From a virus (taxonomy: Duplodnaviria > Caudoviricetes), in IMG/VR virus record IMGVR_UViG_3300037313_000591, positions 1 through 57,794 of that record: a DNA stretch of 57,794 nucleotides. One strand, given 5' to 3'. Shown piece by piece: positions 32,391 to 56,434 of this stretch (its first letter is position 1; each line of letters opens with the position of its first letter). The notes under the pieces were generated by a model. The model ran no database searches, was not told the origin of the DNA, and saw only the letters and a list, made by a program, of their open reading frames with translations. The translations under genes and the position numbers were made by a program.

Positions 32391-33170
32391 ATGACAAAGA
32401 TCCTGTTCATTCCAGATAGCCAAGTGAAGCCAGGCGACGATCTTGGCTTCCTGACTCGCATCGGTAGGTACATCGTAGACAAGAAGCCGGACGTCATTGT
32501 GCATGCAGGTGACTTCGCGGACATGGAAAGCCTAAGTAGCTACGACAAGGGCAAGCGGTCCTATGAAGGGCGAAGGTACAAGGCCGACATAAAGGCCGCG
32601 CGTGATGGGATGGAGGCGCTTCTAGGCCCTCTGCGCGAATACAACCTCATGCGAATACGGAACAAGAAATCCCCATATCGCCCCCGCATGGTTCTCACGC
32701 TCGGCAACCATGAGAATCGCATCAATAGGACCATCGACGATGAGCCGCTACTGGACGGGACCATATCGACGGATGACCTGATGTACAAGGAATACGGCTG
32801 GGAAGTCCATCCGTTCCTTGAAGTAGTGGTCATTGAAGGCATCGCCTTCGCCCACTATTTCACGACTGGCGCAATGGGGCGTCCAGCATCCTCCGCGCAG
32901 GCGATGTTGAACAAGAAGCACATGTCGTGTATCGCCGGCCACCAGCAAGGTAGGCAATCGGCTACAGGCGTCAAGGCTGACGGGCGGCAAATTACCGCAA
33001 TCATCGCGGGATCCTGCTACGAGCATGCTGAAGAATATCTGGGACCACAAGGGAATAAGCACTGGCACGGCGTCATCATGCTGCACAACGTGAGCAACGG
33101 AGAATTTGATGAGTGCTTCGTGCCCCTGCATTACATCAACGAGAGATATGGAGAGGCACATGCTGCGTGA
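32391..33170 (+). CDS. calcineurin-like metallophosphoesterase
   Basis: IPDSQ, GDFAD, LGNHENR, FAHY, GHQQ motifs. Confidence 0.85.
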   Translation: MTKILFIPDSQVKPGDDLGFLTRIGRYIVDKKPDVIVHAGDFADMESLSSYDKGKRSYEGRRYKADIKAARDGMEALLGPLREYNLMRIRNKKSPYRPRMVLTLGNHENRINRTIDDEPLLDGTISTDDLMYKEYGWEVHPFLEVVVIEGIAFAHYFTTGAMGRPASSAQAMLNKKHMSCIAGHQQGRQSATGVKADGRQITAIIAGSCYEHAEEYLGPQGNKHWHGVIMLHNVSNGEFDECFVPLHYINERYGEAHAA

Positions 33171-33224
33171 GCGAGCAGAAGTGCACAGCCGCGCCAGAAA
33201 TGCTGGCTCCGTCATAGCCCGGTC

Positions 33225-33455
33225 ATGGTATATTCACTCAACGGAACATCGGATGAAAGGCTATGCTTTATGTCTCTCGTTGTTGATCAACTCCAATCTT
33301 ATTCCAATGAGCTGGACAAGGCCGTGATCGCCCTCGGCTCGGACAGTATCAGGCTGGAACTTGCGTCAATCCGCACGGGAATTGAGCGAGCTAAGCTGCA
33401 GCTCAGCTCCTGTGCTATGCCAGTTCTACCGAAGATCATTTTCGACATCTCCTGA
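33225..33455 (+). CDS. hypothetical protein
   Basis: ORF only; start uncertain. Confidence 0.35.
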   Translation: MVYSLNGTSDERLCFMSLVVDQLQSYSNELDKAVIALGSDSIRLELASIRTGIERAKLQLSSCAMPVLPKIIFDIS

Positions 33456-33459
33456 CCCG

Positions 33460-33630
33460 CTAGACCGAAAGCCTACGTTCCAAAGGCATGGTCATCACCC
33501 GTGCCGCAACCTCAGCCGGCACTCCGCTGGCGGCAAGCGTGACTGACGTCGCCAGCCAGCCCACCAACGGCAGCAGGATCAGCGCCAGGTCGACCCGGCT
33601 GGCGGTGATGTGGTCAATGCGTTCGATCAT
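33460..33630 (-). CDS. small hypothetical protein MIERIDHITASRVDLAL... (56 aa, not in the ORF track)
   Basis: Own translation; divergent from the SOS box at 33688. Confidence 0.5.
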   Translation of the reverse strand: MIERIDHITASRVDLALILLPLVGWLATSVTLAASGVPAEVAARVMTMPLERRLSV

Positions 33631-33687
33631 GGCGGCAGGATACAGCCCGACAGCCGTGCGCTAGTTGAGCTCACGCAGGCTGCTATA

Positions 33688-33703
33688 CTGTACGCATGCA
33701 CAG
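33688..33703. promoter_or_regulatory. LexA (SOS) box
   Basis: CTGTACGCATGCACAG fits CTGT-N8-ACAG, within the palindrome CTATACTG...CAGTATAG; overlaps the ATG at 33696. Confidence 0.8.
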
Positions 33704-33986
33704 TATAGTCAAACGTCTACGCGACAAGGGAGTGACGCGCTCCCGCGACGATATCGCCCTTGACCACGGTTACGAAGGCGAACTGCGCTTTGGCGCGGTA
33801 GGCCTGGTGCCGACCGCAACGCTGACCGAGCCGGACGACGAGCACTTCCGACCTATCATCCCTGCGCTCGAGCACGCGGAGCTGGTCGTCATTCGCGTGG
33901 ACATGATGATGTTCCGCGGCATTGAGCGGGACAAGGGTGGAGCAGGGTACGAGCAGGAGTGGTCAGTGCGGATCATCGGGTACTAG
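33696..33986 (+). CDS. putative SOS-inducible protein
   Basis: Start codon lies inside the SOS box; stop overlaps the int stop (CTAG). Confidence 0.65.
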   Translation: MHSIVKRLRDKGVTRSRDDIALDHGYEGELRFGAVGLVPTATLTEPDDEHFRPIIPALEHAELVVIRVDMMMFRGIERDKGGAGYEQEWSVRIIGY

Positions 33987-35236
33987 GCCGCTACTTGGCG
34001 TTTGAGAGGCACAACGTTCCACTCGTCGCCACGCTCGCACGCAATAAGAAATCGCGCCCAAAGCTCCAAAGCTTCGCGACGCTCTGGAATTTCCTCCCGC
34101 ACGTCGTATATGCCCTCCATTCCCTTCAACGTATGGTTCAGGGCGATTTCCGAAATTTCGCGCGAGACGCCAAGGTTTCGCATATGCCCCTTTGCGGTGC
34201 TGCGCGTATCATGCGGAGTGAAACGCCGGGTAGCAATGTGGCCGCGCTTGAAGGCTTGGTCAATCGAGTTCCATAGGGTTGTTTGCCCTGCGTGTGAATC
34301 TGCAGTTTGAGGCGTTCGACCAGGCAAAACCCATTCTGACCCGTCCGCCAACTTTCGCAATTCCTCAAACCATCCGGCGACCGATGCGGTCAGCGGGACC
34401 AGAAAGCCTACTCTCGTTTTTACAGAGTCATCAGGCACAAACCAGGTTCCGCGCTCAAAATCCACGTGCTCCCACTTCGCCTTGAGTAGCTCGACAGACC
34501 TAACGCAGGTTGCAAGCAATATTCTCAGGGCAAGCGCGTTTTCCGTGCCTATGACGTCAATTCCGGAAAGCAGATGCCGTAGCTCATCCTTAGATAGCAT
34601 CACTCGTTTGCGCACTGGCGGGCGCGGGCCAAGCAGGGCGGCGAGCTTGATCCCGGTAGCTGGATTCACACGTATGAGCTGGCGACCGATCGCATGGTCA
34701 AATAGCTTGCTGACCGTACCAAGGATGCGCCTTTGAATTGCCCATGTTCTGCCTGACTTCTCCAGCATGTCGACGACATCTTCGGCCGAAACATCCTTTA
34801 CTTCAAGCGAGCCAAGGCTAGGAATAATCACGTCTTCAAGGTCGCTCTTACGATAGGCAACTGTCCGCTCCGCGTACTGACCAGTCTCAAGTGCCTTTTC
34901 TATATAATCCTTCACAAGCATGCGTACTAGCCATGCATTACGCTTAGCGAGTCGCTCCTTTCGCTTTTCAGACGCCGGATCCAGCCCCTTGTCGACGTCT
35001 ACGCGCTTCTCTGCCGCCAACTTCCTTGCTGCAGAAAGGCTCAGATCAGGGTAGTTCCCTAGCGTGAGTTCGCGCGGCCTTCGAGCGATCATGTAGCGCA
35101 ATACCCAGGTCGCAGTTCCTGCTTTGGACAAAGTGAAGGTTAAGCCACCGCCATCTGACTTGGCAACTGGCTCACCCGCGGCGACCCACCGCCGGATTTG
35201 CATGTCACTGAGTAGATTGGTTCCTCGGCCGGCCAT
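33983..35236 (-). CDS. int: tyrosine integrase with an N-terminal arm-binding domain (P4-like)
   Basis: DGGGL..W..RY...LG.YP..SL..AR arm domain; catalytic R (TCVRSVE), HDTR, LNH, Y. Confidence 0.95.
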   Translation of the reverse strand: MAGRGTNLLSDMQIRRWVAAGEPVAKSDGGGLTFTLSKAGTATWVLRYMIARRPRELTLGNYPDLSLSAARKLAAEKRVDVDKGLDPASEKRKERLAKRNAWLVRMLVKDYIEKALETGQYAERTVAYRKSDLEDVIIPSLGSLEVKDVSAEDVVDMLEKSGRTWAIQRRILGTVSKLFDHAIGRQLIRVNPATGIKLAALLGPRPPVRKRVMLSKDELRHLLSGIDVIGTENALALRILLATCVRSVELLKAKWEHVDFERGTWFVPDDSVKTRVGFLVPLTASVAGWFEELRKLADGSEWVLPGRTPQTADSHAGQTTLWNSIDQAFKRGHIATRRFTPHDTRSTAKGHMRNLGVSREISEIALNHTLKGMEGIYDVREEIPERREALELWARFLIACERGDEWNVVPLKRQVAA

Positions 35237-35274
35237 TGTTCGTATCCTGTAAAAATGCGCTGAAGCTGCCTATT

Positions 35275-35520
35275 CTAGCTACAAATCTAGCCACAATTGG
35301 AGGCTGCGATTCTGGTAGTCTGAGTTAGACAACAGGATACAGCAAGCGAGAACGCTATAGAGGGAAAACTCAGCAACCTAAGATGCGCACGGACACCCAT
35401 AGATACCAATGAAGCTTGCAGGTGAGGAGTTCCATTGGGTGGCGCAAACCTAGTACTCGAGCGCATTTCGGGCTTTTTGGTGTAGTAAGTCTTGAGCCTA
35501 GCTACAAACCTAGCTACAAA
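35275..35520. other. attP region with four arm-type direct repeats
   Basis: CTAGCTACAAA/CTAGCCACAA at 35275, 35287, 35498 and 35510, flanking about 200 bp between int and xis. Confidence 0.75.
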
Positions 35521-35565
35521 ATACAGATGAGCCAGAAACCTACAGTGGGAGACGGTTTACTGTAG

Positions 35566-35739
35566 TCATTCCCTCGGCTTGCCTGAGGCAAGCCGATTGA
35601 TGCTGGCGGCAGTGATGCGGGTCGCGCTTCCGACTTTTACCACCTCGAGCTCGCCTCGCTGGACCAATCGATAGATTGTTGCCCGGCAAACGTCCAGGCG
35701 CTTCATTGCACTGCTGACCTTGTAGAGGATCTGATCCAT
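35566..35739 (-). CDS. xis: excisionase (HTH_17-like, 57 aa, not in the ORF track)
   Basis: MDQILYKVSSAMKRLDVCRATIYRLVQRGELEVVKVGSATRI; AAGGAG RBS; next to attP. Confidence 0.85.
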   Translation of the reverse strand: MDQILYKVSSAMKRLDVCRATIYRLVQRGELEVVKVGSATRITAASINRLASGKPRE

Positions 35740-35751
35740 TGTCTTGCTCCT

Positions 35752-36282
35752 TCACTTCGATAATTCATTATTAGTTGGGGCGGCTGCCGGCTCCTTCCCG
35801 GCTTTGGCGCCAGACCCGGAGACTGCGTCCCACTGCCGGGACAGCTCGGCACATTTCGTTGCCCAGCTTGGATACGGCAGCGCTGACTTCGATAGGCCGT
35901 ACAGCCATGCGGCCATCTTTTCGCCAACCGCATCCTTCTCTGTTCCCGCTGCGGGAGCCGTTCCGCAGTTGTCGCAGATGGGCTTGTACCATTTCTGGAA
36001 GCTCGGGCGCAGCCGCTGGTAGCGCGAGTCGGTGATGAAGCGGGTATAGAACAGTGTGGTCGATTCCCACTTTAACGGCTCTGCATCTGGCTCCGAACCG
36101 GCAGCCCGCAGGCGCTCGACTTCGGCGATCAGTTCAAGCACAGCAGCGGGGCTCAACGCTTCGATGAAGTTTGCCGCAGGCTCGTAGGTGATTCCGTCAG
36201 CGATATGCAAGCTTCTGTACCAGTGCCCGGTGTTTTCGTTCAGATACGCCAGTGCCCGCGCCTTTATCTTGTTGATGTCCAT
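35752..36282 (-). CDS. Ead/Ea22-like mosaic early protein
   Basis: A.FI.A.SPAAVLELIAEVERLR motif. Confidence 0.65.
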   Translation of the reverse strand: MDINKIKARALAYLNENTGHWYRSLHIADGITYEPAANFIEALSPAAVLELIAEVERLRAAGSEPDAEPLKWESTTLFYTRFITDSRYQRLRPSFQKWYKPICDNCGTAPAAGTEKDAVGEKMAAWLYGLSKSALPYPSWATKCAELSRQWDAVSGSGAKAGKEPAAAPTNNELSK

Positions 36283-36283
36283 G

Positions 36284-36523
36284 TCATGCCTCCTTGGTGG
36301 CGATGAGTTCGCAAGCAGCGTTTTGCACCATGCGCTCGGCGAGCTTTAGCGAGTCGTATTCGCCCATGTACACTGCGCAAAGGCTTGCAAGCTCGCGCAC
36401 TTTGCCATCGCGGAGCAATGCTGTCCGCGACCACTCGACCAACTCAGCGCAGCAGGCTTTGAGGTTGGCAGCGCAGAAAGCTTCGGCAGCTTCGCGCGCT
36501 AAGTTCAATTCAGTGCGATCCAT
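36284..36523 (-). CDS. hypothetical early protein
   Basis: GGAGG RBS; packed in the leftward operon. Confidence 0.6.
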   Translation of the reverse strand: MDRTELNLAREAAEAFCAANLKACCAELVEWSRTALLRDGKVRELASLCAVYMGEYDSLKLAERMVQNAACELIATKEA

Positions 36524-37278
36524 CAGGCTTCCTCCCTTCCACTCTTGATAGGTGTAGGGGCGGCAGCGATCCGCACTTCAGACAGCAAGCGGGCGTTGTC
36601 GTAGCCTTGGTCGTCCTTCACGTGGACGAATACGCGGTGCGCGTGCTTCTCGCCTTCGCGGACTTGATGCGACAGCGCGCCCCACACGTAATAACCAATG
36701 ACGGTGTGCTCGACCCATGCGTCTTGGCGGCCAAGGTGGATCAGCACGCGGGAGCCGACTGGTGGCAACAGATCGCCTTCAACCGGATCAAGTGGCGCTG
36801 TTCCAGCGGTGCGACCGTCGATGTAGGCGACCAATTCAGCGTAGACGCGCTCAATGTCGGTGGTGAGGCACAATTGCCACTTGTCGGCCAGCGCGCGGAA
36901 CTCGCGGCTGTCGATGCTCCGCACCGTTCCCCACGCCCGTTCTGCATCCTTGCGCGCGTTCTCGCTGCCGATAAAGGCGGCACGGGCCTGTTCCAGATCG
37001 CGCTCTAACTCGGCGATTCGTGCATCTTTTGCCCGCATGCTGTTTGCGTGATTGGCAGCAGAGGCAAGAGCTTCCAATTCGTTCATAACGACAATAGACC
37101 CGTCGCTCATCTCGTATTTGTGCTTGCCCGTCCCTTTGCGTCCAAACTCGTGGATGCGTACCACATGGGGCGGCGGCAGGGGGATGGCTTCGCCATTCGT
37201 CCCCATAGGGGAGGAGCGAACGCAGTCAGGGTCATGCACGGAATTCGTGCCGAGTTCACAAAAGCGGCAAAGTGTCAT
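36523..37278 (-). CDS. mosaic hypothetical early protein
   Basis: Overlapping start/stop with its neighbours. Confidence 0.6.
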   Translation of the reverse strand: MTLCRFCELGTNSVHDPDCVRSSPMGTNGEAIPLPPPHVVRIHEFGRKGTGKHKYEMSDGSIVVMNELEALASAANHANSMRAKDARIAELERDLEQARAAFIGSENARKDAERAWGTVRSIDSREFRALADKWQLCLTTDIERVYAELVAYIDGRTAGTAPLDPVEGDLLPPVGSRVLIHLGRQDAWVEHTVIGYYVWGALSHQVREGEKHAHRVFVHVKDDQGYDNARLLSEVRIAAAPTPIKSGREEA

Positions 37279-38270
37279 TTCGATCCTTTCTGTGGTTGAC
37301 TGGCGGCGATAAGACTGTCGAGCGCATCGTCAAGCGCGGCGCCGTCTGGAATGTCTAACGTCCACGACATCGGAATCGGCTCGCGCTTATGGCGCAAATA
37401 CCGATAGCGCGCCGCATCCCGTTCGGTATCCGCGCCAGCATGCGCTGCCTGTGCCGCGCCCTGCTGGGCAAGGTCGGCAAAGCGGACGTATTCGCCGTGC
37501 TTGTCGTCACGTTCAGGCACGCCGGATGCGTCGAAACTGTAACGGGCCAGCGGTGCAGCTTCCTGGCTGGGTGCTGGAGCGCGAGAGGTAGGACAGTTGC
37601 TAACGCTGCAATAATCGGCGCTATTCACGCGCCAGCCGCATTTGGCACAAGTTACGATCTCATCGGTGCTCGCGCTTGCCGTGGTGGCCGCTGGGCTAGC
37701 GCGCAGACCTTCGGCGTACGCTTCGCGCATGGCATTGCTTACCGTGCGGCCCTTCCGCTGCTCAGCAGCCATCCATGCATAACTGGCATCATCGGGATCG
37801 ACAGCCGCCCCTGCCTGCTGGGTGGCCGGCGCGCTGTCATATAGCGGGAAGAACTCGGTGCAGCCTTCCCCGGCGCGGCGCTTCGCTTCTTCCTTCGTGA
37901 ACGCCACGTCACCACGGCCATCCAGATCAGTCGCAAGCCACGCGGTCGGTGCTTCGGGCGCGGCTTGCTGGGACAAATACAACGAGTATGTGCCGTCAGG
38001 TAGCGAGCCTAGGTTTTCGCTCATCCATTGCCGTTCGGCGCCATGTTTGATGACTGTTGCGACTGGAGCATCTTGGGCGGCAGGACGAGCACGCGAAGCC
38101 TGCCATGCGCGCCAGCAAAGCTCCGTGTCGCCATCCAGGTATCGACCGCCATTCGGGTGCGGCGTGAAGCTAAATACATGCGACAGGGTAGTAGTCGGGC
38201 CACTACGCGCCCACGCTTCAAACTGCCCCCGTTCCGCCTGCTCGGTGACGCGCTGGTTCTGGTTATCCAT
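37275..38270 (-). CDS. mosaic hypothetical early protein
   Basis: ATG (MDNQNQ) after AAGGA; ER..FEAW, AWQA.RA, RDAARYRYLR modules. Confidence 0.65.
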   Translation of the reverse strand: MDNQNQRVTEQAERGQFEAWARSGPTTTLSHVFSFTPHPNGGRYLDGDTELCWRAWQASRARPAAQDAPVATVIKHGAERQWMSENLGSLPDGTYSLYLSQQAAPEAPTAWLATDLDGRGDVAFTKEEAKRRAGEGCTEFFPLYDSAPATQQAGAAVDPDDASYAWMAAEQRKGRTVSNAMREAYAEGLRASPAATTASASTDEIVTCAKCGWRVNSADYCSVSNCPTSRAPAPSQEAAPLARYSFDASGVPERDDKHGEYVRFADLAQQGAAQAAHAGADTERDAARYRYLRHKREPIPMSWTLDIPDGAALDDALDSLIAASQPQKGSK

Positions 38271-38435
38271 TGCTTTGTCCTTTCTCTGCTGGCACCGGGC
38301 CGGCTTTAATCTGGTAGGCTCGGTCGCACATGCGGCAATACGTCCGAACGACTTTCCCAGTGGTTCCAATGCGGCGCGGTACGATGAACTGATGACCGGC
38401 AGGGCACTTCACTTGGTCGCGATAAGTCTTTGCAC

Positions 38436-38870
38436 TCATTTCGCCTCTCCAGTCTTGCTAGTAGCTGTGCCGCTTTCGAGCGCACGAAACAGGTTCTGCA
38501 TCAGCGGCGTAAGTTGACGCACGACTGCCTCATCGTTGTTCTGATCGCAGGGATGCACTCGGCCGCGCATTTCTTCGATGGCATCGGCAACGACAGCTTG
38601 CGCAGCATTGCGGATTGCCTCGGCGTTCTGTGCGCTGGCCGAAGAGACGAGCTTGCAGAATGCTTCACGCAGGCGGTCGGCGATCTGTGCATATGCGCCG
38701 CCTACTGCGGTTGCGTTTCGGTACAGCACGACTCGCTGCTCATCCATCGTGTGCGGGCAGGCCAGCAGTGCGCGGCACAGATCGCGCTCGGCATCTTGCG
38801 CGGCCTGCTGGGTAGGTTGGGCGTTCTGTGCGCTGGCAGGAGCTACCGCCACTTTCTCATTCTTATTCAT
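38436..38870 (-). CDS. hypothetical early protein with an ASAQNA repeat
   Basis: GGAG RBS; 18-bp direct repeat at 38622 and 38820. Confidence 0.55.
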   Translation of the reverse strand: MNKNEKVAVAPASAQNAQPTQQAAQDAERDLCRALLACPHTMDEQRVVLYRNATAVGGAYAQIADRLREAFCKLVSSASAQNAEAIRNAAQAVVADAIEEMRGRVHPCDQNNDEAVVRQLTPLMQNLFRALESGTATSKTGEAK

Positions 38871-39370
38871 TTGTCTACTCCAATCGGGTTGAGCACGGCG
38901 AGATCGCCAAAGTAATGAATTGCGGCTTTGTTATAGGCGTGGGCCGCTTCATCAATCGTGTGGTAGTTGCCCAGGTACTTATTCACCTTGTTGACCTTGA
39001 TCTGCGCGGTATAGCGATCCCCTCGGGTATTCCTGAACACACCCTTTGCCGGCACCGCACCGCGAACGCCTTTGTTCACGTTATTTTCAAAGCTCGTAAC
39101 ACTTCGCAAGTTACTAATCCTGTTGTTCGCCCGATCACGGTCGATATGGTCGATTTGATCCGGCCATTCACCGTAATGCAGCGCCCATGCAATTCGATGA
39201 ACTGCAACGTCCCTGCCCATTACCCCAACCCTGAGATAGCCCTTCCCTTTGGTCCCGACCGGAACAGTTGGATCAAAAGACCCGCGTTTCACTGATAGGC
39301 GATAAACAAAGCCCGTTTCAGGGTCGTAACGGAAGATTTTGCGCAACTCCTCGATGTCGATGACGATCAT
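38867..39370 (-). CDS. HNH homing endonuclease with an AP2 domain
   Basis: YDPETG, HRIAW, IDHIDR...NNRISNLR, YLG.Y....EAA.AY..AA..YFG. Confidence 0.9.
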   Translation of the reverse strand: MIVIDIEELRKIFRYDPETGFVYRLSVKRGSFDPTVPVGTKGKGYLRVGVMGRDVAVHRIAWALHYGEWPDQIDHIDRDRANNRISNLRSVTSFENNVNKGVRGAVPAKGVFRNTRGDRYTAQIKVNKVNKYLGNYHTIDEAAHAYNKAAIHYFGDLAVLNPIGVDK

Positions 39371-39828
39371 TTGCCGCTACCTTCCTGAGCCTGTCTTGCA
39401 AGGTGCGCGCGAAGGTCGGCGATTTCGGCATTGCGGGCTTCAAGTGGCGCCCTGTCGCCGATGTAGATTTTTGCGACACCGCCTACGTCAGCGCGGAACG
39501 TGTTGCCAACCATGCGCTCTTGCCACGTCTTGATGACTGGCTGCTCTGCTTTCGGTTGGCGTGCGAGGTGGGCAGCAATCGCAGCGCGCTCGATGGCGCG
39601 GGCGAAGTATAGCGATGGCGAGATGCCGCTCGTGCTTTGGTCTTGCGCTTCGCGGTAAAGCTGGCCGATCTGCTCATCCGTCAGATCGCCGGCGCCGTTT
39701 TCTTCGCTCGTTATGCCAGCATTCACCGCACCGGCCGCCAGTTCCTGCCACGCTGCGTCTTCAGCCTCGGTCCAGTCCAGCGGCTCAGTCGGCAATTTGT
39801 CTTCGATGCGGCGCTTCTGATTCGTCAT
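39367..39828 (-). CDS. hypothetical early protein
   Basis: GGAG RBS before MTNQK; LTDEQI, FARAIE modules. Confidence 0.55.
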   Translation of the reverse strand: MTNQKRRIEDKLPTEPLDWTEAEDAAWQELAAGAVNAGITSEENGAGDLTDEQIGQLYREAQDQSTSGISPSLYFARAIERAAIAAHLARQPKAEQPVIKTWQERMVGNTFRADVGGVAKIYIGDRAPLEARNAEIADLRAHLARQAQEGSGK

Positions 39829-39905
39829 GTCTTCTCCAAAGGTCTCTAGGCGTGCTGTCTTGTATTCGGGGTAAAGGGCATCAGCCGTGTAGCAAACGCG
39901 AGCAG

Positions 39906-40475
39906 TCATATCGGCGCCTCGGACTCAAGACCCAAGCTCTTGCGCAGGGCGTACATCGCGGAGAAGTGCGCGTTGCGCCGCTCGATGTGCGAGATCAGCA
40001 AGGTCTGCTCGACCATTTTCTGTATGCGCCACTCGACAGCACCCATACGAATTGGCGGCGAGTCCTTCCGGTCGCAGTCGCAGCCGATGGACAGACCAAT
40101 GTCTTCCATCAGACGCGACCTAAGGGTCCGGTATGCCGGGATATCGCGCGCCCACTCCTGCAAGCGTGCGAGCGCGTCTTCGTAGCGACGGCGGAGCTCT
40201 GCTCGTGCGATTTGGCGCGACTCCCACTCGGCGCACCGTTTGGCGTAATCTGCATCGCACGCCAGTTGTGCCGCGGCTTCGTCCATGCCCTCGAGCTCGA
40301 CCAGGTACGCTCGTGCTTCCGCCAGTTCCACAGCAAGCGGCGATTCGTCGTCGCTTACCACGTCCGCCGCCGGGCAACTCAGCCCCAGCTGCGAACCCAG
40401 CATCGTGGCACTTTGGAGCACGAACTCTTCGAACGTCACTCCCCGCGTAATCGCTCCTGCGCATCCTATTGGCAT
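39906..40475 (-). CDS. hypothetical protein
   Basis: GGAG RBS; ORF in the leftward operon. Confidence 0.55.
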   Translation of the reverse strand: MPIGCAGAITRGVTFEEFVLQSATMLGSQLGLSCPAADVVSDDESPLAVELAEARAYLVELEGMDEAAAQLACDADYAKRCAEWESRQIARAELRRRYEDALARLQEWARDIPAYRTLRSRLMEDIGLSIGCDCDRKDSPPIRMGAVEWRIQKMVEQTLLISHIERRNAHFSAMYALRKSLGLESEAPI

Positions 40476-40506
40476 GGCTGTCTCCGCTCTTGTCAGGTGA
40501 AATTCA

Positions 40507-41160
40507 TCAATTGGTTAGCTGCTGCTTAGTCGGGTTCATTCCGATCCTTCGCTCCACTTCACGTAGTGCAGCAGCATGTCTTGAATAAAGAGTCGTCTTC
40601 TTCATGTTCAACCTCTCTGCAATCTCGGAAAGGCAGAGGCGTTCACCCTGGAAGTTCGCCATGATGTTCCGGCGGGTGTTCTGCGCTTGCTGCTTTGGTG
40701 TCGCCCAACGACAGTTTCCTGGTTCATAATTTCCATTCTTGTCGGGCCAGCGATCTAACGTCATCCCCTCCGGTGGGTCGCCCATATCAGCGACAAAGTT
40801 CTGCAGCGTCTTCCAGCGATCGGAAACCACGATTCCTCGGCCGCCGTAGTCGCTGTAGTGCTTATTCCTCGGGTTCTCGCAACGGTCAATCATGTGATGC
40901 CAAGTGTTCCGGGCACGCACGTGGTGTATCCCAAAGGCGTCGGCCTTACGTTTCTTGGCCAGCTCCTGGAACGCTTTCGAACGCATGCACCCACACGATT
41001 TGGTATTCCCCGACAATAGGCTGCTAATATCGACAAGGACGATGCAACCGCAAGCACAAATGCACTCCCATTGCGTCTTTCCAAACCTGTCTTTTCCGCA
41101 GCGCTTTGATGCTGTCAAATATCCAAATACTTGACCGGCTACCTCTTTGAACTTAGGCAT
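40507..41160 (-). CDS. HNH-like homing endonuclease
   Basis: W.C.C.CG, SCGC, YGGRGI.V..RW, F..DMG..P.G.TLDR...NGNYEPGNCRWAT. Confidence 0.85.
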   Translation of the reverse strand: MPKFKEVAGQVFGYLTASKRCGKDRFGKTQWECICACGCIVLVDISSLLSGNTKSCGCMRSKAFQELAKKRKADAFGIHHVRARNTWHHMIDRCENPRNKHYSDYGGRGIVVSDRWKTLQNFVADMGDPPEGMTLDRWPDKNGNYEPGNCRWATPKQQAQNTRRNIMANFQGERLCLSEIAERLNMKKTTLYSRHAAALREVERRIGMNPTKQQLTN

Positions 41161-41602
41161 TTGCATCCTCGCTGTTTAGGCGCCGTGACTCGCTCCACTG
41201 CACGCCTCGCGCAGCACCGAAGGCGTACAGGAACTCGATAAACTGCGCGGCCTCCTTAACGTAGAAGTCTCGCGACTGGATGCCAAGCTGGACAATTCGC
41301 TGTCCATCTAAGCTCGGTACAACGCGACCGTCATGGTGCAGGGGAGTCCCAGCCATTCGCATCTCATCCGCGAAGTCGTCGATCAGGAGGCGCTTCATAT
41401 CGTCGGCGTCCCACTTGCGGCCGATATGCTCTATCTGGCGGGCGATATCGCCGATCATGGCGTGGTACTTCTCTTCCTGAATGCGGCGCTTGATCGGCTC
41501 GGACATAACTACCATCCAACCTGCCGGAGCTTCCATGCAGAAGCGGGCGGCGTTATTGCGGGCCTGATCGTGAACCAGAACGAAGGTACGTTTGGCGGTC
41601 AT
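41153..41602 (-). CDS. ninB: NinB/YbcN-like recombination protein
   Basis: R...Q....HAMIGDIARQ, FIEFLYAFGA.RGV.WS. Confidence 0.8.
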   Translation of the reverse strand: MTAKRTFVLVHDQARNNAARFCMEAPAGWMVVMSEPIKRRIQEEKYHAMIGDIARQIEHIGRKWDADDMKRLLIDDFADEMRMAGTPLHHDGRVVPSLDGQRIVQLGIQSRDFYVKEAAQFIEFLYAFGAARGVQWSESRRLNSEDANA

Positions 41603-41823
41603 GGCGTCACCACTTCCCGCAGCGAAGCAACGTCCACACGCGCCAATCGCTCGGCCATCTGAGTCATCGACGTGTCGAACGCTTCCGCCAGCACGTAGAG
41701 CGTTTCAGCGTCAGTCGGAGCGTCAGCCATCACATCGGCCATATCGGCTAGACGAGGGTAGTCGCCATTGCGGGCGTCACGCAGGAATTGCGCTGCCATT
41801 TCGTTTGCGTGGTCGAGGGTCAT
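41599..41823 (-). CDS. hypothetical protein
   Basis: ATG at 41823 overlapping the upstream stop. Confidence 0.5.
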   Translation of the reverse strand: MTLDHANEMAAQFLRDARNGDYPRLADMADVMADAPTDAETLYVLAEAFDTSMTQMAERLARVDVASLREVVTP

Positions 41824-42335
41824 CACTTGATCTCCAACCTGGTTGCCTGCGACAGCTTCGCGCCCGGGATCTCGCGGCCAGCTTTGATGGCGTCCTTGAT
41901 CGCGGCCTTGTCCGGCGCAGGCGGGGGTGGTGGAGGAGGTTCCGGTGCGCGCATGAACTCCGCCGGGATCTGCTTCTCGTCCCAAATCTCGACGGACGGC
42001 GGGTTCTTCTTGATCGTCAGGGCAAAGTGAGGGCAATCTAGCTTCGAGACGCCGGCAATCTCCAGGCCAACCTTCAGGTGCTCGGTGAGAGAGGTGGCAC
42101 GCTTCTCGATCGCCAGACGCCGGGCCTTCATCTGCTCCTCTGCATCCTCGATGCTGGCGGCGGTTGCTTGCAGGTTGCGAATCACGAAGCCATAGTTCTG
42201 TGCCTTCAGTTCCAGTGGCCAGATTTCGGCTTCCAGCGTGTCGGCCAGGGTCTGTTCGTCGACGCCGGCATCCATCAGGACGTCAGTGATGTGGCGGAAC
42301 TCGGAAGCGATCTGAAATAAAGTAAGTGAGCTCAT
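41823..42335 (-). CDS. siphovirus Gp157-like protein
   Basis: DTLE..., KNPPSVEI.DE..IP.EF, DK.AIK.AIK.G..IPGA.L. Confidence 0.85.
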   Translation of the reverse strand: MSSLTLFQIASEFRHITDVLMDAGVDEQTLADTLEAEIWPLELKAQNYGFVIRNLQATAASIEDAEEQMKARRLAIEKRATSLTEHLKVGLEIAGVSKLDCPHFALTIKKNPPSVEIWDEKQIPAEFMRAPEPPPPPPPAPDKAAIKDAIKAGREIPGAKLSQATRLEIK

Positions 42336-43225
42336 TTGGCGGTCTCCACGTTCGCTTCAAATTCAGCCTTGCGGCCGTTGTAGACACTCTGCGCTGCGGC
42401 CATGGCATCGGTGTTACCGAAGCCCTTCGCGTACTTGTAGGCGGTCGCGAAGTGGCGTTGCAGCGTTTCCAGAGAGTCGGCGTCGACGATCGCACCAGTC
42501 AGGCTAGTCATCGTGTCTTCGTCGAACCTGGCCGGCTCCGCGCCCATTTCAAGCCATTGCTTCAGTTGTTTGCCTGTGTCGACAGTGATCGGCGCAGGGT
42601 TGGCGTTGGAGAACAGTCCAGTACGGTCCTTGGTCGCGGTAGCGAAGTTACCGTCGTGGATCAGGTCCAGTACAACGGTCATCTCGTATTCGAAGCCGTC
42701 GCGCTGCTCGGCCTTCATGCCCAGCTTGACGACCTTCTTGCGTCCGTTCTCTTCGGTCTGCGCGGTCTCGGTCTTACTGCGCAGGGTGACGATGATGTGC
42801 ATGGAGCTATGCAGGATCGCGTCGAGCAGGGCGCGGTGACGCGGCGTCACATCATTCCAGGCGCTCCATGAGTTGCCCTTGTACTTGGCGCGTGCGATCT
42901 GGTCGACCAGCTCCAGGCAGCCACCGACGCCGCTCCACTCGTGCGTGATGCTGTCGATGATGCAGGTGTCGTAACCCGCTTCCTCAGCAGCCTTGATTGC
43001 CTCGATATAGCGTTCTGGCGTGAACGGCGAACCCAGGTTGAGCGTGTCGAAGTCGGTCAGGTGCGAATAGAGCGATGCGCTCTCTCGCTCGGTATCGACC
43101 ACTGCGATCCTGCCGCCCAGGCCAGTCGCGAGCAGGAGGGCGCCCCAGGTCTTGCCCGATCCGCTCGGCCCCGTCACTGCCAGCCGTAGCTTGGCCTTCT
43201 GACGCGTAGCTTTGGTGAATTTCAT
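42332..43225 (-). CDS. Sak4-like AAA recombinase ATPase
   Basis: GPSGSGKT, VDTE, IIDSITHEW, EQRDGFEYE, KDRTGLF. Confidence 0.85.
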   Translation of the reverse strand: MKFTKATRQKAKLRLAVTGPSGSGKTWGALLLATGLGGRIAVVDTERESASLYSHLTDFDTLNLGSPFTPERYIEAIKAAEEAGYDTCIIDSITHEWSGVGGCLELVDQIARAKYKGNSWSAWNDVTPRHRALLDAILHSSMHIIVTLRSKTETAQTEENGRKKVVKLGMKAEQRDGFEYEMTVVLDLIHDGNFATATKDRTGLFSNANPAPITVDTGKQLKQWLEMGAEPARFDEDTMTSLTGAIVDADSLETLQRHFATAYKYAKGFGNTDAMAAAQSVYNGRKAEFEANVETAK

Positions 43226-43242
43226 TGCAAGCTCCATTCAAG

Positions 43243-43437
43243 TTAGAAAGGAAGGTTTTCGTCTTTCACGCGCTGCTCGTGTTCCTTGCGCTGCTGTTCC
43301 ATCATCCGCGGCGACCACACGCTCGTGTAACCGACCGTGCGGAGCGGGGGAAACAGCTTTGCTGCCAGGCTCCTGCGGCGCTGCTCCATTTCTTCGTACT
43401 GCTGGAGCGCGTCTGATGCGTCTTCGATCTTGTTCAT
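43243..43437 (-). CDS. hypothetical protein
   Basis: GAGGAG RBS; ends in LPF. Confidence 0.5.
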   Translation of the reverse strand: MNKIEDASDALQQYEEMEQRRRSLAAKLFPPLRTVGYTSVWSPRMMEQQRKEHEQRVKDENLPF

Positions 43438-43452
43438 GTCTGACTCCTCAGA

Positions 43453-43578
43453 TCAGGGCGGGCTTACCATCAGAACCACTGTGCAGATCAGCCCCAGGAT
43501 CGTCAGGCCAGCCAGCTTCACTTTTGCGACAAGGATTTCAGCCTCGGTCACGCGAACTACTTGCTGCATGTGGTTCAT
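43453..43578 (-). CDS. small single-TM protein (41 aa, not in the ORF track)
   Basis: AAGGAGG RBS; MNHMQQ...LAGLTILGLICTVVLMV. Confidence 0.45.
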   Translation of the reverse strand: MNHMQQVVRVTEAEILVAKVKLAGLTILGLICTVVLMVSPP

Positions 43579-43597
43579 GGCTTCCTCCTTGGTTGAG

Positions 43598-43804
43598 TTA
43601 CCAGCCTTCGATTTGGCGACGCTTTGCGGTTAGTGCGATCTGGCGCTTACGCTCTGCCAGCTCCATCGGGATCGACTGCACACGCATGACGTAGAAGTGG
43701 TCGGCGCGGTATTCGCAGCGGGCCAGCTGGTAGTTCGTCCACCAGAGGGCCAGCGGCTTGGTGATCTTGCGCACCAGACGGCGGGCGATGCGGGCGGCGA
43801 TCAT
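43598..43804 (-). CDS. hypothetical protein
   Basis: ATGA-coupled to the upstream gene. Confidence 0.55.
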   Translation of the reverse strand: MIAARIARRLVRKITKPLALWWTNYQLARCEYRADHFYVMRVQSIPMELAERKRQIALTAKRRQIEGW

Positions 43805-44328
43805 GCGGCCACCTCATCTTTCTGCGCCTCTGCAGCCGCGTATTCACTCGCCAGAATCTCGACCATGTGCTCGTTCAGCTTGGCTGTGGTCGCGACGTAG
43901 ACGGCGTCGCTACGGTCAAGCAATGCGAAGCTGCCGCCGAAGATCAGGGCGCCCCAAGTTGTACCCATCGCTTGCAGTACCGGGTCAAAGGGAACGTCGT
44001 CAGTCGGACACCAGTCCTTCCACTGCGCCTTCAAGTCGGCCAGCTCGGCCTTTTCCTCCGCAGTGGCCTTCACGATCGAATTGCGCGGGCGCTGCTGGCC
44101 GAGCGATTGCCTGTCAGGGCACGTCCAAAGGCGAGTCGGTTTGGGCGGCTCGAACACGAGTCCGCAGATGCGGTAGCCTTGCGTGTTATTGCTGACGACC
44201 AGATGCTTAGCGCCGAAGTGTGCTTGAAAAGCCTCGCCGCGCTTACGCAGGGCCGCCAGCTTTTCATTGCGCTCACTGAGCACGGACAGCACTTCCGGGG
44301 CGCTCGTCTTGTAGTAAGCCTTGCTCAT
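43801..44328 (-). CDS. hypothetical protein
   Basis: GAGGAG RBS before MSKAYYK; EILASEY C-terminal motif. Confidence 0.6.
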   Translation of the reverse strand: MSKAYYKTSAPEVLSVLSERNEKLAALRKRGEAFQAHFGAKHLVVSNNTQGYRICGLVFEPPKPTRLWTCPDRQSLGQQRPRNSIVKATAEEKAELADLKAQWKDWCPTDDVPFDPVLQAMGTTWGALIFGGSFALLDRSDAVYVATTAKLNEHMVEILASEYAAAEAQKDEVAA

Positions 44329-44460
44329 TACGTCTGCTCCTCGTTTGTTATTAGGTGTGGCGCACCGGGCGGCCTTCACTCTCTCGTGAGTGGCGGCGGT
44401 CCTTACTACCCGCTCGCGCTTCCGGTCTGGGTACTAGCCAGACAGTTCCGGTCATGCGGT

Positions 44461-44602
44461 TCACCACACTAGACCCGGCTGGAGTTGAACCAGCGACTAG
44501 GACCATTGACGGTCGCGCGTGTCCGTCGATCCTGCGGCTTGCCTTTCGGCTTCGCATCCGCCCTTGACTCTACCTAGCTGAGTTACGGGCCTAGTGTGGT
44601 GA
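44461..44602 (-). ncRNA. tRNA-like RNA with an extended acceptor stem and a two-hairpin insert replacing the anticodon loop
   Basis: Acceptor AGGCCCG/CGGGTCT extended to 17 bp; D-arm ACTC-AGCTAGGTA-GAGT; T-arm GCTGG-TTCAACT-CCAGC. Confidence 0.7.
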
Positions 44603-44629
44603 CTGGCTTACGACCAGTCAGGCGTCCTG

Positions 44630-44869
44630 CTACTGCTTGAATCGTGCAACTGCCAACTCGTATTGGCGGGAGTACTGCAGCTCGCGCTCGATGGCGCTCA
44701 GCGCAATCTCCAAGCCGTCGTTGAGGCCGTTGATGTACTGACTCTCGTGCTGATGAACGGCGTTGCGAGCGGCCTGCACGACTTTCTGGAGTGCTTCGAG
44801 GCGCTCGCTGGCAGCGGGCATGATCGACCCCGCGACGCGCTGCTGGCTAATCTGTGGTGTCACATTCAT
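44630..44869 (-). CDS. hypothetical protein
   Basis: AGGAG RBS; NGL.DGLEIAL. Confidence 0.55.
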   Translation of the reverse strand: MNVTPQISQQRVAGSIMPAASERLEALQKVVQAARNAVHQHESQYINGLNDGLEIALSAIERELQYSRQYELAVARFKQ

Positions 44870-47199: not shown

Positions 47200-47466
47200 A
47201 TGACGAACCATAACGACGAGTCGACCGAACATCGAGTTCTCGCCGCGCTCCGCGAGATCAATCCACAAAAGCGTGCCGAGCTTGTGGCTGTGATCGAGGC
47301 GATGGCAGCTGCGTTTCCGAAACCAGCCAAGGCGTCGATTACCAAGCCGGCGTCACTTAGTCTTGTGGTCAGCGACGGCCGCGTTGTCCGCGCTGGGAAG
47401 CGCCCTGGCCATCACCAGGAGCGAATTTTTCCCGCTCTCAGTCATTCTGCGGTACTCACTAAGTAA
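47200..47466 (+). CDS. small protein resembling the CI C-terminal helical domain
   Basis: TEHRVLAALREINPQKRAELVAVIEAMA; converges on and overlaps the 3' end of cI; start uncertain. Confidence 0.5.
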   Translation: MTNHNDESTEHRVLAALREINPQKRAELVAVIEAMAAAFPKPAKASITKPASLSLVVSDGRVVRAGKRPGHHQERIFPALSHSAVLTK

Positions 47467-47754
47467 AGCCGCTTCATCCTCTGATACCCACTGCAGGTTC
47501 GGCGACTGACGTTCGCCGCGGCCGTCTGTGCCGCTCGGCGCCGTATCGTCGCCAACGCCCGTCATAAGCCATTCGGGCGTCGTCCCAAGAACCTCCGCAA
47601 CCTTCTTGATGCGGTTACGGTTCGGCGCGGTCCCATCCTCGTTCTCCCACTGCTGAACAGTCTGCCAAACCACGCCCACGGCCTTCGCAAGGGCCTCTTG
47701 GCTATGGTAGCCGCGCTCGATGCGCTTCTGCTTGATTCGTTGATGGATGCTCAT
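47353..47754 (-). CDS. cI: CI-like repressor (XRE HTH, no S24 peptidase domain)
   Basis: RIKQKR...SQEALAKAVGV.WQTVQQWE...P...I.KVAEVLGTTPEWL; 133 aa; divergent from cro. Confidence 0.85.
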   Translation of the reverse strand: MSIHQRIKQKRIERGYHSQEALAKAVGVVWQTVQQWENEDGTAPNRNRIKKVAEVLGTTPEWLMTGVGDDTAPSGTDGRGERQSPNLQWVSEDEAALLSEYRRMTESGKNSLLVMARALPSADNAAVADHKTK

Positions 47755-47767
47755 TCCGCAACTATGC

Positions 47768-47829
47768 CAAGAAGGACTAGTACGCGATACACAGATTTTT
47801 CTTGTGTCTGCTAGATTTTCTAGTACAAT
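47768..47829 (+). promoter_or_regulatory. oR/pR region with three operators
   Basis: CAAGAAGGACTAG (47768), CAGATTTTTCTTG (47792), CTAGATTTTCTAG (47811); -35 TTGTGT and -10 TACAAT. Confidence 0.7.
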
Positions 47830-47836
47830 GGCGTTC

Positions 47837-48106
47837 ATGGATACCTCATCTCACCAAGCGCTTTCTCGCGCAATTGCTCAATACCCGACTCTGAAGGCGT
47901 TTTCGGACGCTCTTGATGTTCGCTACCAGGTCGTTCAGCAGTGGCTCGTCAACGGCGTGCCAGCTGAGTATTGCCCGCTGATCGAAAAGTTGACTGGCGA
48001 GCGCTGCGAAGACCTGAACAGCAAAGTTGATTGGGCATTCATCCGATCGAACAAACCAGGGCGCACCAAGCGCCAAAGGGTCGCATCAAAAAATTCTAGG
48101 CATTGA
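47837..48106 (+). CDS. cro: Cro/YdaS-like regulator
   Basis: L.V.YQVVQQW...VPAEYCP.IEK.TG..CEDL..VDW; probably leaderless. Confidence 0.8.
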   Translation: MDTSSHQALSRAIAQYPTLKAFSDALDVRYQVVQQWLVNGVPAEYCPLIEKLTGERCEDLNSKVDWAFIRSNKPGRTKRQRVASKNSRH

Positions 48107-54796: not shown

Positions 54797-55122
54797 CTGA
54801 TCGTGAGCTGTTAGACCTGGCAGCAAAGGCGGCGGGGATTACTCTTGATTGGCAAGAAGGCTGGAACGGGATGCCTGACTCCGCATCAAATATGGGCCGT
54901 GTTTGGAGCCCTTTGACCGACGATGGCGACGCGCTGCGGCTAGCCGTGAAGCTGAACATGGAAGTATGTTCGCATGCGGACGCCGATATTGGAGGTATTT
55001 CCTGGGCTGATGCGTCGGGCCACGCTTTCGCTTATATCGAATTGCCTCACGACGGCGACCAGATGGCCGCAACCCGTCGCGCCATCGTCCGCGCTGCCGC
55101 TGAAATCGGGAGGTCCGAATGA
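54793..55122 (+). CDS. conserved phage hypothetical protein
   Basis: MTDRELL.LAAKAAG...W.PLTDDGDALRLAVKL...ATRRAIVRAAAEIG. Confidence 0.7.
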   Translation: MTDRELLDLAAKAAGITLDWQEGWNGMPDSASNMGRVWSPLTDDGDALRLAVKLNMEVCSHADADIGGISWADASGHAFAYIELPHDGDQMAATRRAIVRAAAEIGRSE

Positions 55123-55478
55123 ACGCCCCAACCAACCAAGCAATCCTCGAAGAAGCCCCGCAAGCCGACAGCCCCTTCGTCACCGTCATGAAGACATGGG
55201 CACGCTGGATGACACTAACCGACAGGCAGCACGCAGGCGGCTGGGCGCACCCGCAGGACGTGAAGGAGTTTATGCGCGCAGGGGAGGCGGTCGATACGAT
55301 GGTTAACGATTTGCCAAGTTCGCACCGGTGGGCGATCTACCGGGCGTATGGCATCGCTACCGTGTGGCGTTTCCCGGCTTTGTCGCTGGCTGATACGGTG
55401 ATCGAGGCTGAGAACCTTCTGACGCCGAGGATGCTGCGGAACGTGGATGTGCGAAGATATTTCGCTGATTCCCGTTGA
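55119..55478 (+). CDS. putative late antiterminator/regulator (Q position)
   Basis: Last early-right gene, ahead of a promoter-terminator pair; W..W and D.M...L....R.AI pattern. Confidence 0.5.
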   Translation: MNAPTNQAILEEAPQADSPFVTVMKTWARWMTLTDRQHAGGWAHPQDVKEFMRAGEAVDTMVNDLPSSHRWAIYRAYGIATVWRFPALSLADTVIEAENLLTPRMLRNVDVRRYFADSR

Positions 55479-55484
55479 AAACTA

Positions 55485-55513
55485 TTGCGTTCGGAAAATA
55501 CTTATATTAGTAT
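55485..55513 (+). promoter_or_regulatory. candidate late promoter (pR'-like)
   Basis: TTGCGT, 17 bp, TAGTAT. Confidence 0.45.
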
Positions 55514-55551
55514 GGTTGAGCTAGATTCCGTTACTGCGCTCTAGCGACACG

Positions 55552-55587
55552 AAACCCGCCCCGAAAGGTCAGCGGGTTTTTGTTTTT
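55552..55587 (+). terminator. tR'-like terminator
   Basis: AAACCCGC-(CC GAAA GG)-GCGGGTTT followed by TTGTTTTT. Confidence 0.8.
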
Positions 55588-55720
55588 CGGCGTCATCCAG
55601 TACACGGGCAATAAAACCCACTCTGGCACCGGCACGCCGCCAACTGCCGGTGACACCTAAATCATAGGAGCTAGCAATGAAGCGAGAAGGTATCGGTTTG
55701 GCTGGTGGTATCGGCGGCGC

Positions 55721-55951
55721 ATGAGAATCTCTACGTTCACCGTTCTGATCTACTTCGGCATGCTGGTCTTCGATGCTGCCGTACTTGGCGGCTTCGCGTA
55801 CCTCGTTGCTGAAAGAGGATGGTCGGCATGGTGGATGCTGTTGGCAGTCCTGATGTGCTCAGGATCGAATCCTAGCAAGATCATCGAAGCGAATAAGGAG
55901 GCGTCATGCGTAACGAAGGTGCAGGAATCGCCTGACAATAAGGCCAAGTAG
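55721..55951 (+). CDS. small two-TM membrane protein
   Basis: Hydrophobic, GWSAWW motif; coupled to a 15-codon upstream ORF (55677..55724) that carries the RBS. Confidence 0.55.
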   Translation: MRISTFTVLIYFGMLVFDAAVLGGFAYLVAERGWSAWWMLLAVLMCSGSNPSKIIEANKEASCVTKVQESPDNKAK

Positions 55952-56306
55952 CGCGTAACTTCGGGATAAGCGCGAGCCTAGTGAAAGCCTAGGCGCCACA
56001 CGCATGCATCCAGCAGAAGTGATCTAGACACTTGAGGCGTCAGTCTCCGCTGGGTGCAGCCGTGTGGTAAATGCGTAGGGAATTCCGGTTGATGACCGGC
56101 TAAGCCGTAGTCCATGACGCCGAACGCGACGGCAAACTCCTCTTTGGAAGTCATGGCGACCACACGCTTCACTGGCGTAACCAGTGACCACACGCATGCA
56201 GGCTTGCTGGAATTCCGAGAGGGTCAACCCGGTGGCCCGGTAGTGAGTCTACAGCCGTGTGGTTAAGCGCAGCAATGCGTAGGGTCGGGAGATCCCAGTC
56301 GCCACT
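55951..56306 (+). ncRNA. late-leader structured RNA array
   Basis: Two CCACACGCATGCA...CAGCCGTGTGG modules, several hairpins, and an rRNA H62-like hairpin. Confidence 0.6.
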
Positions 56307-56343
56307 AATTGTCTCCTCCAAGACGTCCTAGTTTTGGATTTCG

Positions 56344-56376
56344 CCGCCTGTCGCAGCAATGCACAGGCGGTTTTTT
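56344..56376 (+). terminator. intrinsic terminator closing the RNA array
   Basis: CCGCCTGT..GCA-GCAA-TGC..ACAGGCGG followed by TTTTTT. Confidence 0.8.
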
Positions 56377-56434
56377 ATTTAGAGGTTCGCCGCACGAAGC
56401 AGCGCGGCTAGCCTCAACACGATTGAGGCAACCA

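Follow-up and report, generated by a model that had tools for sequence, protein, structure and literature searches.

Lambdoid phages carry transfer RNA (tRNA) genes behind their late regulator, and the tRNA cluster of T4 includes two small stable RNAs of unknown function. In ribosomal RNA (rRNA) operons the flanks of 16S and of 23S rRNA pair and are cut by RNase III, and the put RNAs of HK022, a temperate phage, are cis-acting, folded sense-strand RNAs present in more than one of its operons. A unit that recalls each of these systems was identified in a tailed phage (Caudoviricetes), record IMGVR_UViG_3300037313_000591, of which the whole stretch of 57,794 nucleotides (nt) was analysed; this window is the complete virus record, with a completeness rating of 100% and a G+C content of 59%. 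The unit, here called the clamp, consists of a hairpin (P0), the word CCACAC, an insert and the word GUGUGG, and it is found once in the early-left operon and twice in the late region. CCACAC and GUGUGG are the two strands of a helix (P1) at the base of the insert, with P0 stacked on P1. The clamp would act in the RNA as a stalk for the folding and processing of small stable RNAs, which lie in phage operons beside real tRNAs and transfer-messenger RNA (tmRNA); about an even chance is given to this reading.

The resemblance with phage arrays of tRNAs and stable RNAs lies in the location within an operon leader or 3′ region, in the real tRNAs and tmRNA found alongside, and in tRNA-shaped RNAs that do not decode; the difference is that here a sequence-conserved clamp of P0 and P1 frames each insert and that the closing helix extends the acceptor stem. 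No description of such a frame was found in a surface-level search of the literature. As in rRNA operons, a stable RNA would be enclosed by a long helix of its own flanks, which together with the stacked hairpin reaches at least two turns (14 continuous pairs of P1 and acceptor stem, plus P0, in the early-left module; a P1 of 8 base pairs (bp), a conserved 2 × 2 internal loop and a helix of 10 bp in the late-type class). Unlike the rRNA stalk, the phage helix is nearly invariant and has a stacked 5′ hairpin. The 16S stalk of Massilia contains GUGUGGG, a likeness of only 6-7 nt that is an analogy and not evidence; no boxA-like word was noticed on reading the sequences, no scan having been aimed at boxA.

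Two further systems can be compared. In YrlA, a Y RNA also present in phages, a tRNA-like domain with its D and T arms is attached to a conserved stem, and RNase P cleaves one member, to which CCA is added; the domain runs in permuted order from the T arm through a closed acceptor stem-loop to the D arm, and the stem that binds protein takes the anticodon position (PMC4201824). The clamp shares the conserved stem joined to a tRNA-like domain but differs in that the insert of the early-left module (insert A) has the normal tRNA order and the clamp stem extends the acceptor. The YrlA model of Rfam gave no match at E values up to 10 in positions 44300-44680 and 55480-56420, and a TROVE gene (PF05731, Ro60/Rsr) gave 0 matches in the phage record, the host genome lying outside this search; with the non-permuted order, these results led to the rejection of a Y RNA. 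In the PeSL cassettes of T4-type phages, short conserved stem-loop motifs flank variable modules and mark the breakpoints of shuffling; PeSLs are promoter-terminator motifs around protein genes (PMC2839356, PMC4122927). The edges of the clamp likewise coincide with breakpoints between related phages; in contrast to PeSLs, the clamp is a covarying RNA helix without a promoter-like site and its cargo is non-coding RNA. At Rfam gathering scores no family was found for the clamp unit. The unit is neither a tRNA nor a Y RNA nor a member of any Rfam family and, by analogy, it is most like a phage stable-RNA array combined with an rRNA-type stalk.

Structure and conservation of the clamp

In an alignment of 12 modules from relatives, P1 comprises 8 pairs, A-CCACACG with CGUGUGG-U; it begins directly after the 3′ strand of P0 with no gap, which makes the stacking of the two possible. 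In the early-left module of the window the final A of P0 (44600) pairs with U44463. Changes on both sides of a pair, compensating each other, are found in 12 of the 24 pairs of the alignment, and 96.5% of the paired cells can pair, compared with 81.5% in shuffles (none of 500 reached 96.5%) and at most 41.9% when the partners were slid. The two helices vary in different ways: P1 is nearly invariant, its variant CUACAC/GUGUAG being found in two loci (L162 and L012; L numbers denote loci fetched for comparison) with unrelated P0 stems, while the stem of P0, identical between the early-left module and L033, covaries in other modules and in several of them, including the window at 55976-55994, is replaced by an unrelated complementary sequence. 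No promoter-like site lies within P0 or P1. A 13-nt match of P0 to 23S rRNA was treated as chance, because the rRNA has no hairpin at that place.

By itself, the hexamer is no more frequent in the window (27 matches) than in shuffles (29.97 ± 5.39); the composite of hairpin and CCACAC occurs twice and the triple CCACAC..GTGTGG..CCACAC once, each against 0.00 in shuffles (100 of them for the composite). A covariance model built from the 12 modules (R1), run with filters off over the whole 57.8 kb, returned exactly three sense-strand modules, at 79.7, 70.8 and 17.4 bits, the last being the early-left module (E 0.017); the only other results below E 1 were antisense echoes of the three. At the sites of the two late modules these echoes reached 16.9 and 21.6 bits, against 79.7 and 70.8 bits in the sense direction, and one U.G pair is conserved in 8 of the 12 sequences; this strand dependence locates the constraint in the RNA of the transcribed strand.

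The unit recurs among relatives. When viral contigs were scanned for the 3′ half of the hairpin with CCACAC..GTGTGG, 17 stretches were obtained, 10 of which also have the 5′ strand of the hairpin, which had not been part of the query; the remaining 7 are coding sequence and were kept as chance loci. A scan for hairpin and CCACAC alone gave the full unit in 23 of 39 stretches. Among species-representative genomes it is carried by 4 of 113 stretches, belonging to three Massilia genomes, the only named hosts, and to one metagenome-assembled genome; all 113 were screened by a simple filter and 15 of them also by R1. Over the fetched loci, R1 gave 30 non-echo sense-strand hits in 27 of 63, among them three Massilia prophages, those of L079, L153 and L070; the 7 chance loci gave no hit, and L008 and L041 fall under the R1 threshold although their words are exact. 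A metagenome scan for the tRNA-like insert gave 0 matches, and a second metagenome scan gave 5 stretches with 4 true members, two of which are viral loci already in the set. An order-level genome search with R1 was positive in 1 of 151 genomes, the centre genome itself, which is weak evidence on distribution because only 25 candidates per genome were scored. Neither window region had a blastn match in the phage collection. The protein encoded downstream yielded no related loci, its tblastn matches being all distant (27-32% identity).

A preliminary description of this DNA had proposed that the two arrays, 11 kb apart on opposite strands, share one architecture, which is supported; the motifs are conserved in relatives. 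The elements it listed are all in place: hairpin, CCACAC, tRNA-like cargo, GTGTGG, a segment of about 100 nt and CCACAC in the early-left array; CCACAC at 55996, GTGTGG at 56062, CCACAC at 56160 and the hairpin at 56169 with its CCACAC in the late one. It had also regarded the words as signals for processing or switching; they are indeed conserved, but the covariation and the sense-strand bias characterize them as paired strands of P1 and not as free-standing signals.

Inserts, their exchange and the second CCACAC

Insert A contains the elbow nucleotides by which a tRNA is recognized (U8, A14, G18 G19, UUC and A58), and the loop of its T arm is UUCAACU. An insertion of 61 nt, forming two hairpins of which the first ends in a GAAA loop, replaces the anticodon stem-loop, and insert A has no anticodon stem with a 7-nt loop. 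Its ends are not free, the acceptor stem running on into P1, and no CCA is encoded, since the discriminator directly precedes GUG. Alignment of the four homologues (the window with L033, L162 and L038) gave 43 pairs, 16 of them compensatory, and the homologues of L033 (42.1 bits) and L162 (38.1 bits) both pass the cut-off of 29 bits of the Rfam tRNA model RF00005. Because these homologues pass with an insertion in place of the anticodon stem-loop, insert A is a tRNA derivative unable to decode. In L038 the same tRNA-like RNA uses GUGUGGU/ACCACAC itself as its acceptor stem. A scan of viral sequences for a word of the insert gave 10 stretches, among which only L033, L038 and L162 were genuine.

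The late modules of the window enclose long hairpins; in other phages the clamp holds such hairpins, other tRNA-like RNAs (those of L029 and L027 pass RF00005 with 41.4 and 38.6 bits) or just 18 nt; the last case is L046 (1810-1920, minus strand), a minimal late unit of about 150 nt with a shortened downstream partner. Apart from the homologues of insert A, none of the four inserts of the window has a homologue in the fetched loci; the parts of the frame that do are the tail, the leading hairpin and the terminator RNA. The core of the unit is thus the fixed frame, with interchangeable inserts. The loop word UUAGCUGA was met in two settings, namely a hairpin after GUGUGG (L003, L004, L008, L079, L153) and the interior of inserts (L029, L172, L173), where it forms the enlarged anticodon loop of a tRNA-like insert; its recurrence points to a contact site common to both. 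Words within the inserts that resemble a hammerhead were rejected, as on reading they proved to be plain helix strands.

The preliminary description had also supposed that cargo is swapped at the CCACAC/GTGTGG boundaries, and the comparison of relatives supports it: the motifs are conserved and the breakpoints lie at them. When 28 modules with flanks of 500 nt were compared all against all and the ends of alignments of at least 50 nt were counted, 38 of 182 ends fell no more than 7 nt from a frame edge, the expectation being 5.7% (binomial P 3e-12, over pairs that are related and not independent). Single cases illustrate this: L033 and the window are 90% identical across a 162-nt match that starts 3 nt ahead of P0 and stops 1 nt past GUGUGG, with no match elsewhere; compared with L070, both L030 and L041 keep the two flanks, and the insert is replaced exactly; and the homology of L008 with L079 and L003 starts at the first G of GUGUGG. 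Since its sequence is almost invariant among otherwise diverged phages, the clamp would also be the joint at which recombination exchanges the inserts.

Such breakpoints, together with the tRNA origin of inserts and the phage recombination genes that adjoin the early-left module (those for the Sak4-like protein, Gam and NinB), could also be explained if the units were tRNA-gene relics and flanking repeats without function, or recombination sites acting in DNA only, the words having spread by recombination and not for RNA folding. This is very improbable. Compensatory changes are found in P0, P1 and P1b; the sense-strand bias is strong and accompanied by the conserved U.G pair; the hairpin stem is swapped for unrelated sequence with the structure kept; and the insert retains the elbow nucleotides of tRNA. 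Already the covariation seen in the alignments disfavours a relic or a DNA-only site.

A second pairing is open to GUGUGG. Every CCACAC of the arrays sits 0-2 nt after a hairpin, be it P0, a T arm or a small tail hairpin. Exact downstream partners were counted in 10 of 33 modules, where about 1 would be expected (145 positions/4096 per module), and in 2 of 33 upstream control stretches. One alternative is a two-state switch, in which GUGUGG would pair now with the upstream, now with the downstream CCACAC, closing only one neighbouring insert at a time and in this way ordering folding or processing, or controlling what lies downstream. Both registers are found in nature: covariation supports the upstream one, and in L038 and L027 the downstream one makes up the 8-bp acceptor stem of a tRNA-like RNA. 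L033 retains the downstream partner with one wobble change (CCGCAC), and the minimal unit of L046 has it in shortened form. The switch is nonetheless unlikely: the folding model puts the upstream register ahead by 9.8 kcal/mol in the early-left region and by 6.3 kcal/mol in the late one, every module conserves the upstream helix, several downstream CCACAC are merely the start of the next module, and with one wobble allowed the 14 of 33 downstream partners hardly exceed the 9 of 33 in the upstream control. Moreover, the copy of the tRNA-like module in L162 lacks a downstream partner altogether, and neither register overlaps a ligand pocket, a terminator or a ribosome-binding site.

The earlier statement that the central GTGTGG can pair either way is therefore upheld, the downstream pairing being an acceptor stem in L038 and L027, and the alternative pairing is a real and recurrent possibility; the energy gaps, the count of 10 of 33 and the module of L162 indicate that it is neither universal nor favoured, and the conformational switch built on it does not find support. 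The same applies to the link with terminator read-through, no minus-strand terminator-like site being present downstream of the early-left module (33000-44400).

Gene setting and neighbouring RNAs

By the gene annotation of the window, the genome layout is lambdoid (Table 1). The early-left module occupies the gap between a 79-codon open reading frame (ORF; 44869-44630) and the PHROG 2314 gene, while the late modules are placed between a small membrane-protein-like ORF (55721-55951) and the terminator at 56346-56376.

Table 1. Coordinates of the RNA elements and of the genes around them in the window
Feature	Position	Strand	Description
Early-left module
P0 hairpin TGACTGG-TCGTAAG-CCAGTCA	44600..44620	-	stem of 7-8 bp; loop CGUAA within UCGUAAG
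CCACAC, 5′ strand of P1	44594..44599	-	pairs with 44469-44464
Insert A, anticodon-less tRNA-derived RNA	44470..44592	-	7-bp acceptor stem, D arm, two hairpins, T arm
GUGUGG, 3′ strand of P1	44464..44469	-	also possible 5′ strand of a helix with 44360-44355
Insert B, structured segment of 103 nt	44361..44463	-	no homologue among the fetched loci
Second CCACAC	44355..44360	-	alternative partner of GUGUGG; 27 nt before the ATG at 44328
Late array
Leading hairpin	55951..55973	+	15-nt loop copies a 23S rRNA hairpin loop
Late module A	55971..56069	+	P0 variant GCCUAG/CUAGGC 55976-55994, CCACAC 55996-56001, hairpin insert, GUGUGG 56062-56067; 70.8 bits
Inter-module segment	56068..56165	+	ends in CCACAC 56160-56165, downstream partner of GUGUGG 56062
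Late module B	56165..56264	+	P0 TCACTGG-CGTAA-CCAGTGA 56169-56187, CCACAC 56188-56193, hairpin insert, GUGUGG 56257-56262; 79.7 bits
Tail	56263..56305	+	pair of small hairpins followed by GCCAC 56301-56305, a truncated downstream partner of GUGUGG
CU-rich small RNA and intrinsic terminator	56310..56376	+	end of the late array; related to the toxic small RNA RF02278 of Betaproteobacteria
Genes
Early-left operon		-	HNH endonuclease, NinB, Gam, Sak4-like protein, PHROG 2314 protein (start 44328)
Repressor	47353-47838
Early-right operon		+	replication protein, DnaB, RusA
119-amino-acid protein without recognisable domain	55119-55478	+	where lambdoid phages keep the late regulator; late region 3′ of the gene
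Large terminase	1946-3427

The late array opens with a hairpin whose loop agrees with a hairpin loop of Massilia 23S rRNA at 14 of 15 positions, with an exact run of 13 nt to L186 (4039-4051); the stem differs, and L001, L040 and L021 have this element, again on other stems, ahead of their modules. By this comparison, the leading hairpin looks like a mimic of an rRNA hairpin. The tail of the array is common to L001, L173, L070 and L041. The CU-rich RNA at its end matches RF02278 over the full length with 41.9 bits (E 7.4e-07), below the cut-off of 50 bits, and within the Massilia family 60 of 61 genomes have RF02278, in several copies each; on these grounds the phage seems to carry, ahead of its late genes, a look-alike of a multicopy host RNA. 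R1 found no clamp next to the 30 best chromosomal copies of RF02278. From the Massilia prophages that carry the unit and from the RF02278-like end of the late array, the host of this phage is probably a Massilia-type bacterium.

A CU-rich motif and a T run follow 19 of 29 modules on the same strand. In L024 and L012, P0 is preceded at about 110 nt by a strong promoter-like site. The leaders of relatives also hold tRNA-Tyr, tRNA-Gly, tRNA-Ser and a permuted betaproteobacterial tmRNA. The latter was seen as a two-piece form in L041 (5873-6206, plus strand), just after a tRNA-Gly, with 127 bits for RF01850 and 121 bits for RF04321; its tag is ANDAEFKVAAYA and its acceptor has a G3:U70 pair.

Two observations concern the stretch before the late array. 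Directly after the gene of the 119-amino-acid protein, at 55475-55580 (plus strand), a promoter-like TTGAAA-16-AATACT is followed some 50 nt on by a strong terminator-like hairpin with a T run; this pair may make a short leader transcript or mark the end of the early-right operon. The ORF at 55721-55951 (plus strand), of 76 codons and with the look of a small membrane protein, lies between that hairpin (~55552-55580) and the RNA array; a T-arm-like word within it has an Rfam match at chance level only (E 7).

The 119-amino-acid protein has no match in PHROGs, Pfam, NCBIfam or the PDB sequences, and none by tblastn. Homologues of 31-86% identity are encoded upstream of the module in L018, L153, L004, L013, L029/L170 and L041; in 7 of the 8 loci that have a homologue, it lies upstream of the module on the same strand. 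Given this position, the protein is a candidate late regulator of an undescribed family.

This position also raises the alternative of a cis-acting site of the nut or put type, in which P0 and P1 would be bound by RNA polymerase or by a phage protein, such as that of 119 amino acids, and allow the passage of a following terminator. Like the put RNAs, the module is a folded sense-strand RNA with copies in more than one operon, and the sequence of P0 and P1 is near-invariant while neighbouring pairs covary; a terminator lies 3′ of late-type modules, and the modules of L024 and L012 are near a promoter-like site. However, the position relative to terminators does not fit in the window, where the late modules precede the terminator at 56346-56376 but follow the terminator-like hairpin at ~55552-55580, and where no terminator-like site comes after the early-left module on its strand. 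Inserts as large as those found here, up to 124 nt and variable, are at odds with put RNAs and would be unusual inside an RNA that binds the polymerase; the 119-amino-acid protein has no recognisable domain; and in L004, L008 and L044 a convergent gene, and not late genes, seems to follow the terminator, as judged by a crude and noisy ORF call and by reading the sequence. The cis-acting site is accordingly regarded as quite unlikely.

A proposed processing stalk and its possible meaning

In the favoured reading, that of a folding and processing stalk, P0 and P1 would clamp the base of an independently folding insert and so insulate the fold of each insert. The clamp would then serve as a stalk for processing and stability, from which small stable RNAs may be released out of long operon transcripts, by a logic analogous to that of the helices flanking the rRNAs and cut by RNase III; inserts with the shape of a tRNA might subsequently be trimmed by enzymes of the tRNA type, in the way known for one Y RNA (PMC4201824). 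The near-invariant frame would double as homology for the exchange of inserts.

Several points weigh against this stalk. No nuclease site is readable from the sequence, and the near-invariance of P1 exceeds the need of a generic double-strand nuclease, which suggests a sequence-specific partner that the stalk leaves unnamed. Insert A of the window itself reaches 21.7 bits on RF00005 (E 0.036), below the cut-off, and ARAGORN finds 0 genes in it. A simple stalk also leaves the second CCACAC, which recurs in exact form in 10 of 33 modules, without an explanation. As for the breakpoints, the non-independence of the compared pairs weakens their statistic, and selection on the frame alone could make alignments stop at its edges.

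A broader proposal, rather doubtful at present, is that the clamp is a universal socket for cassettes of non-coding RNA, a counterpart of the integron for folded RNAs. Unrelated phages would plug in, express and trade structured RNAs through it, including anticodon-less tRNA derivatives that maybe act as decoys for tRNA-directed enzymes or defences of the host, and the handover of GUGUGG from the upstream to the downstream CCACAC would order the folding or maturation of neighbouring cassettes.

Phage genomes are annotated almost wholly by their proteins, and the clamp is a recurrent RNA architecture with good support that is absent from RNA databases: a fixed frame with freely exchanged inserts, found in early and late operons of temperate phages of soil Betaproteobacteria. 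The breakpoints at the edges of the frame provide a concrete case of module exchange among RNA genes, and the anticodon-less tRNA derivatives are candidate mimics of host tRNAs. If the clamp is indeed a stalk for processing and stability, it would explain how sets of small stable RNAs are obtained from long transcripts, and it would represent a natural scaffold for RNA expression.

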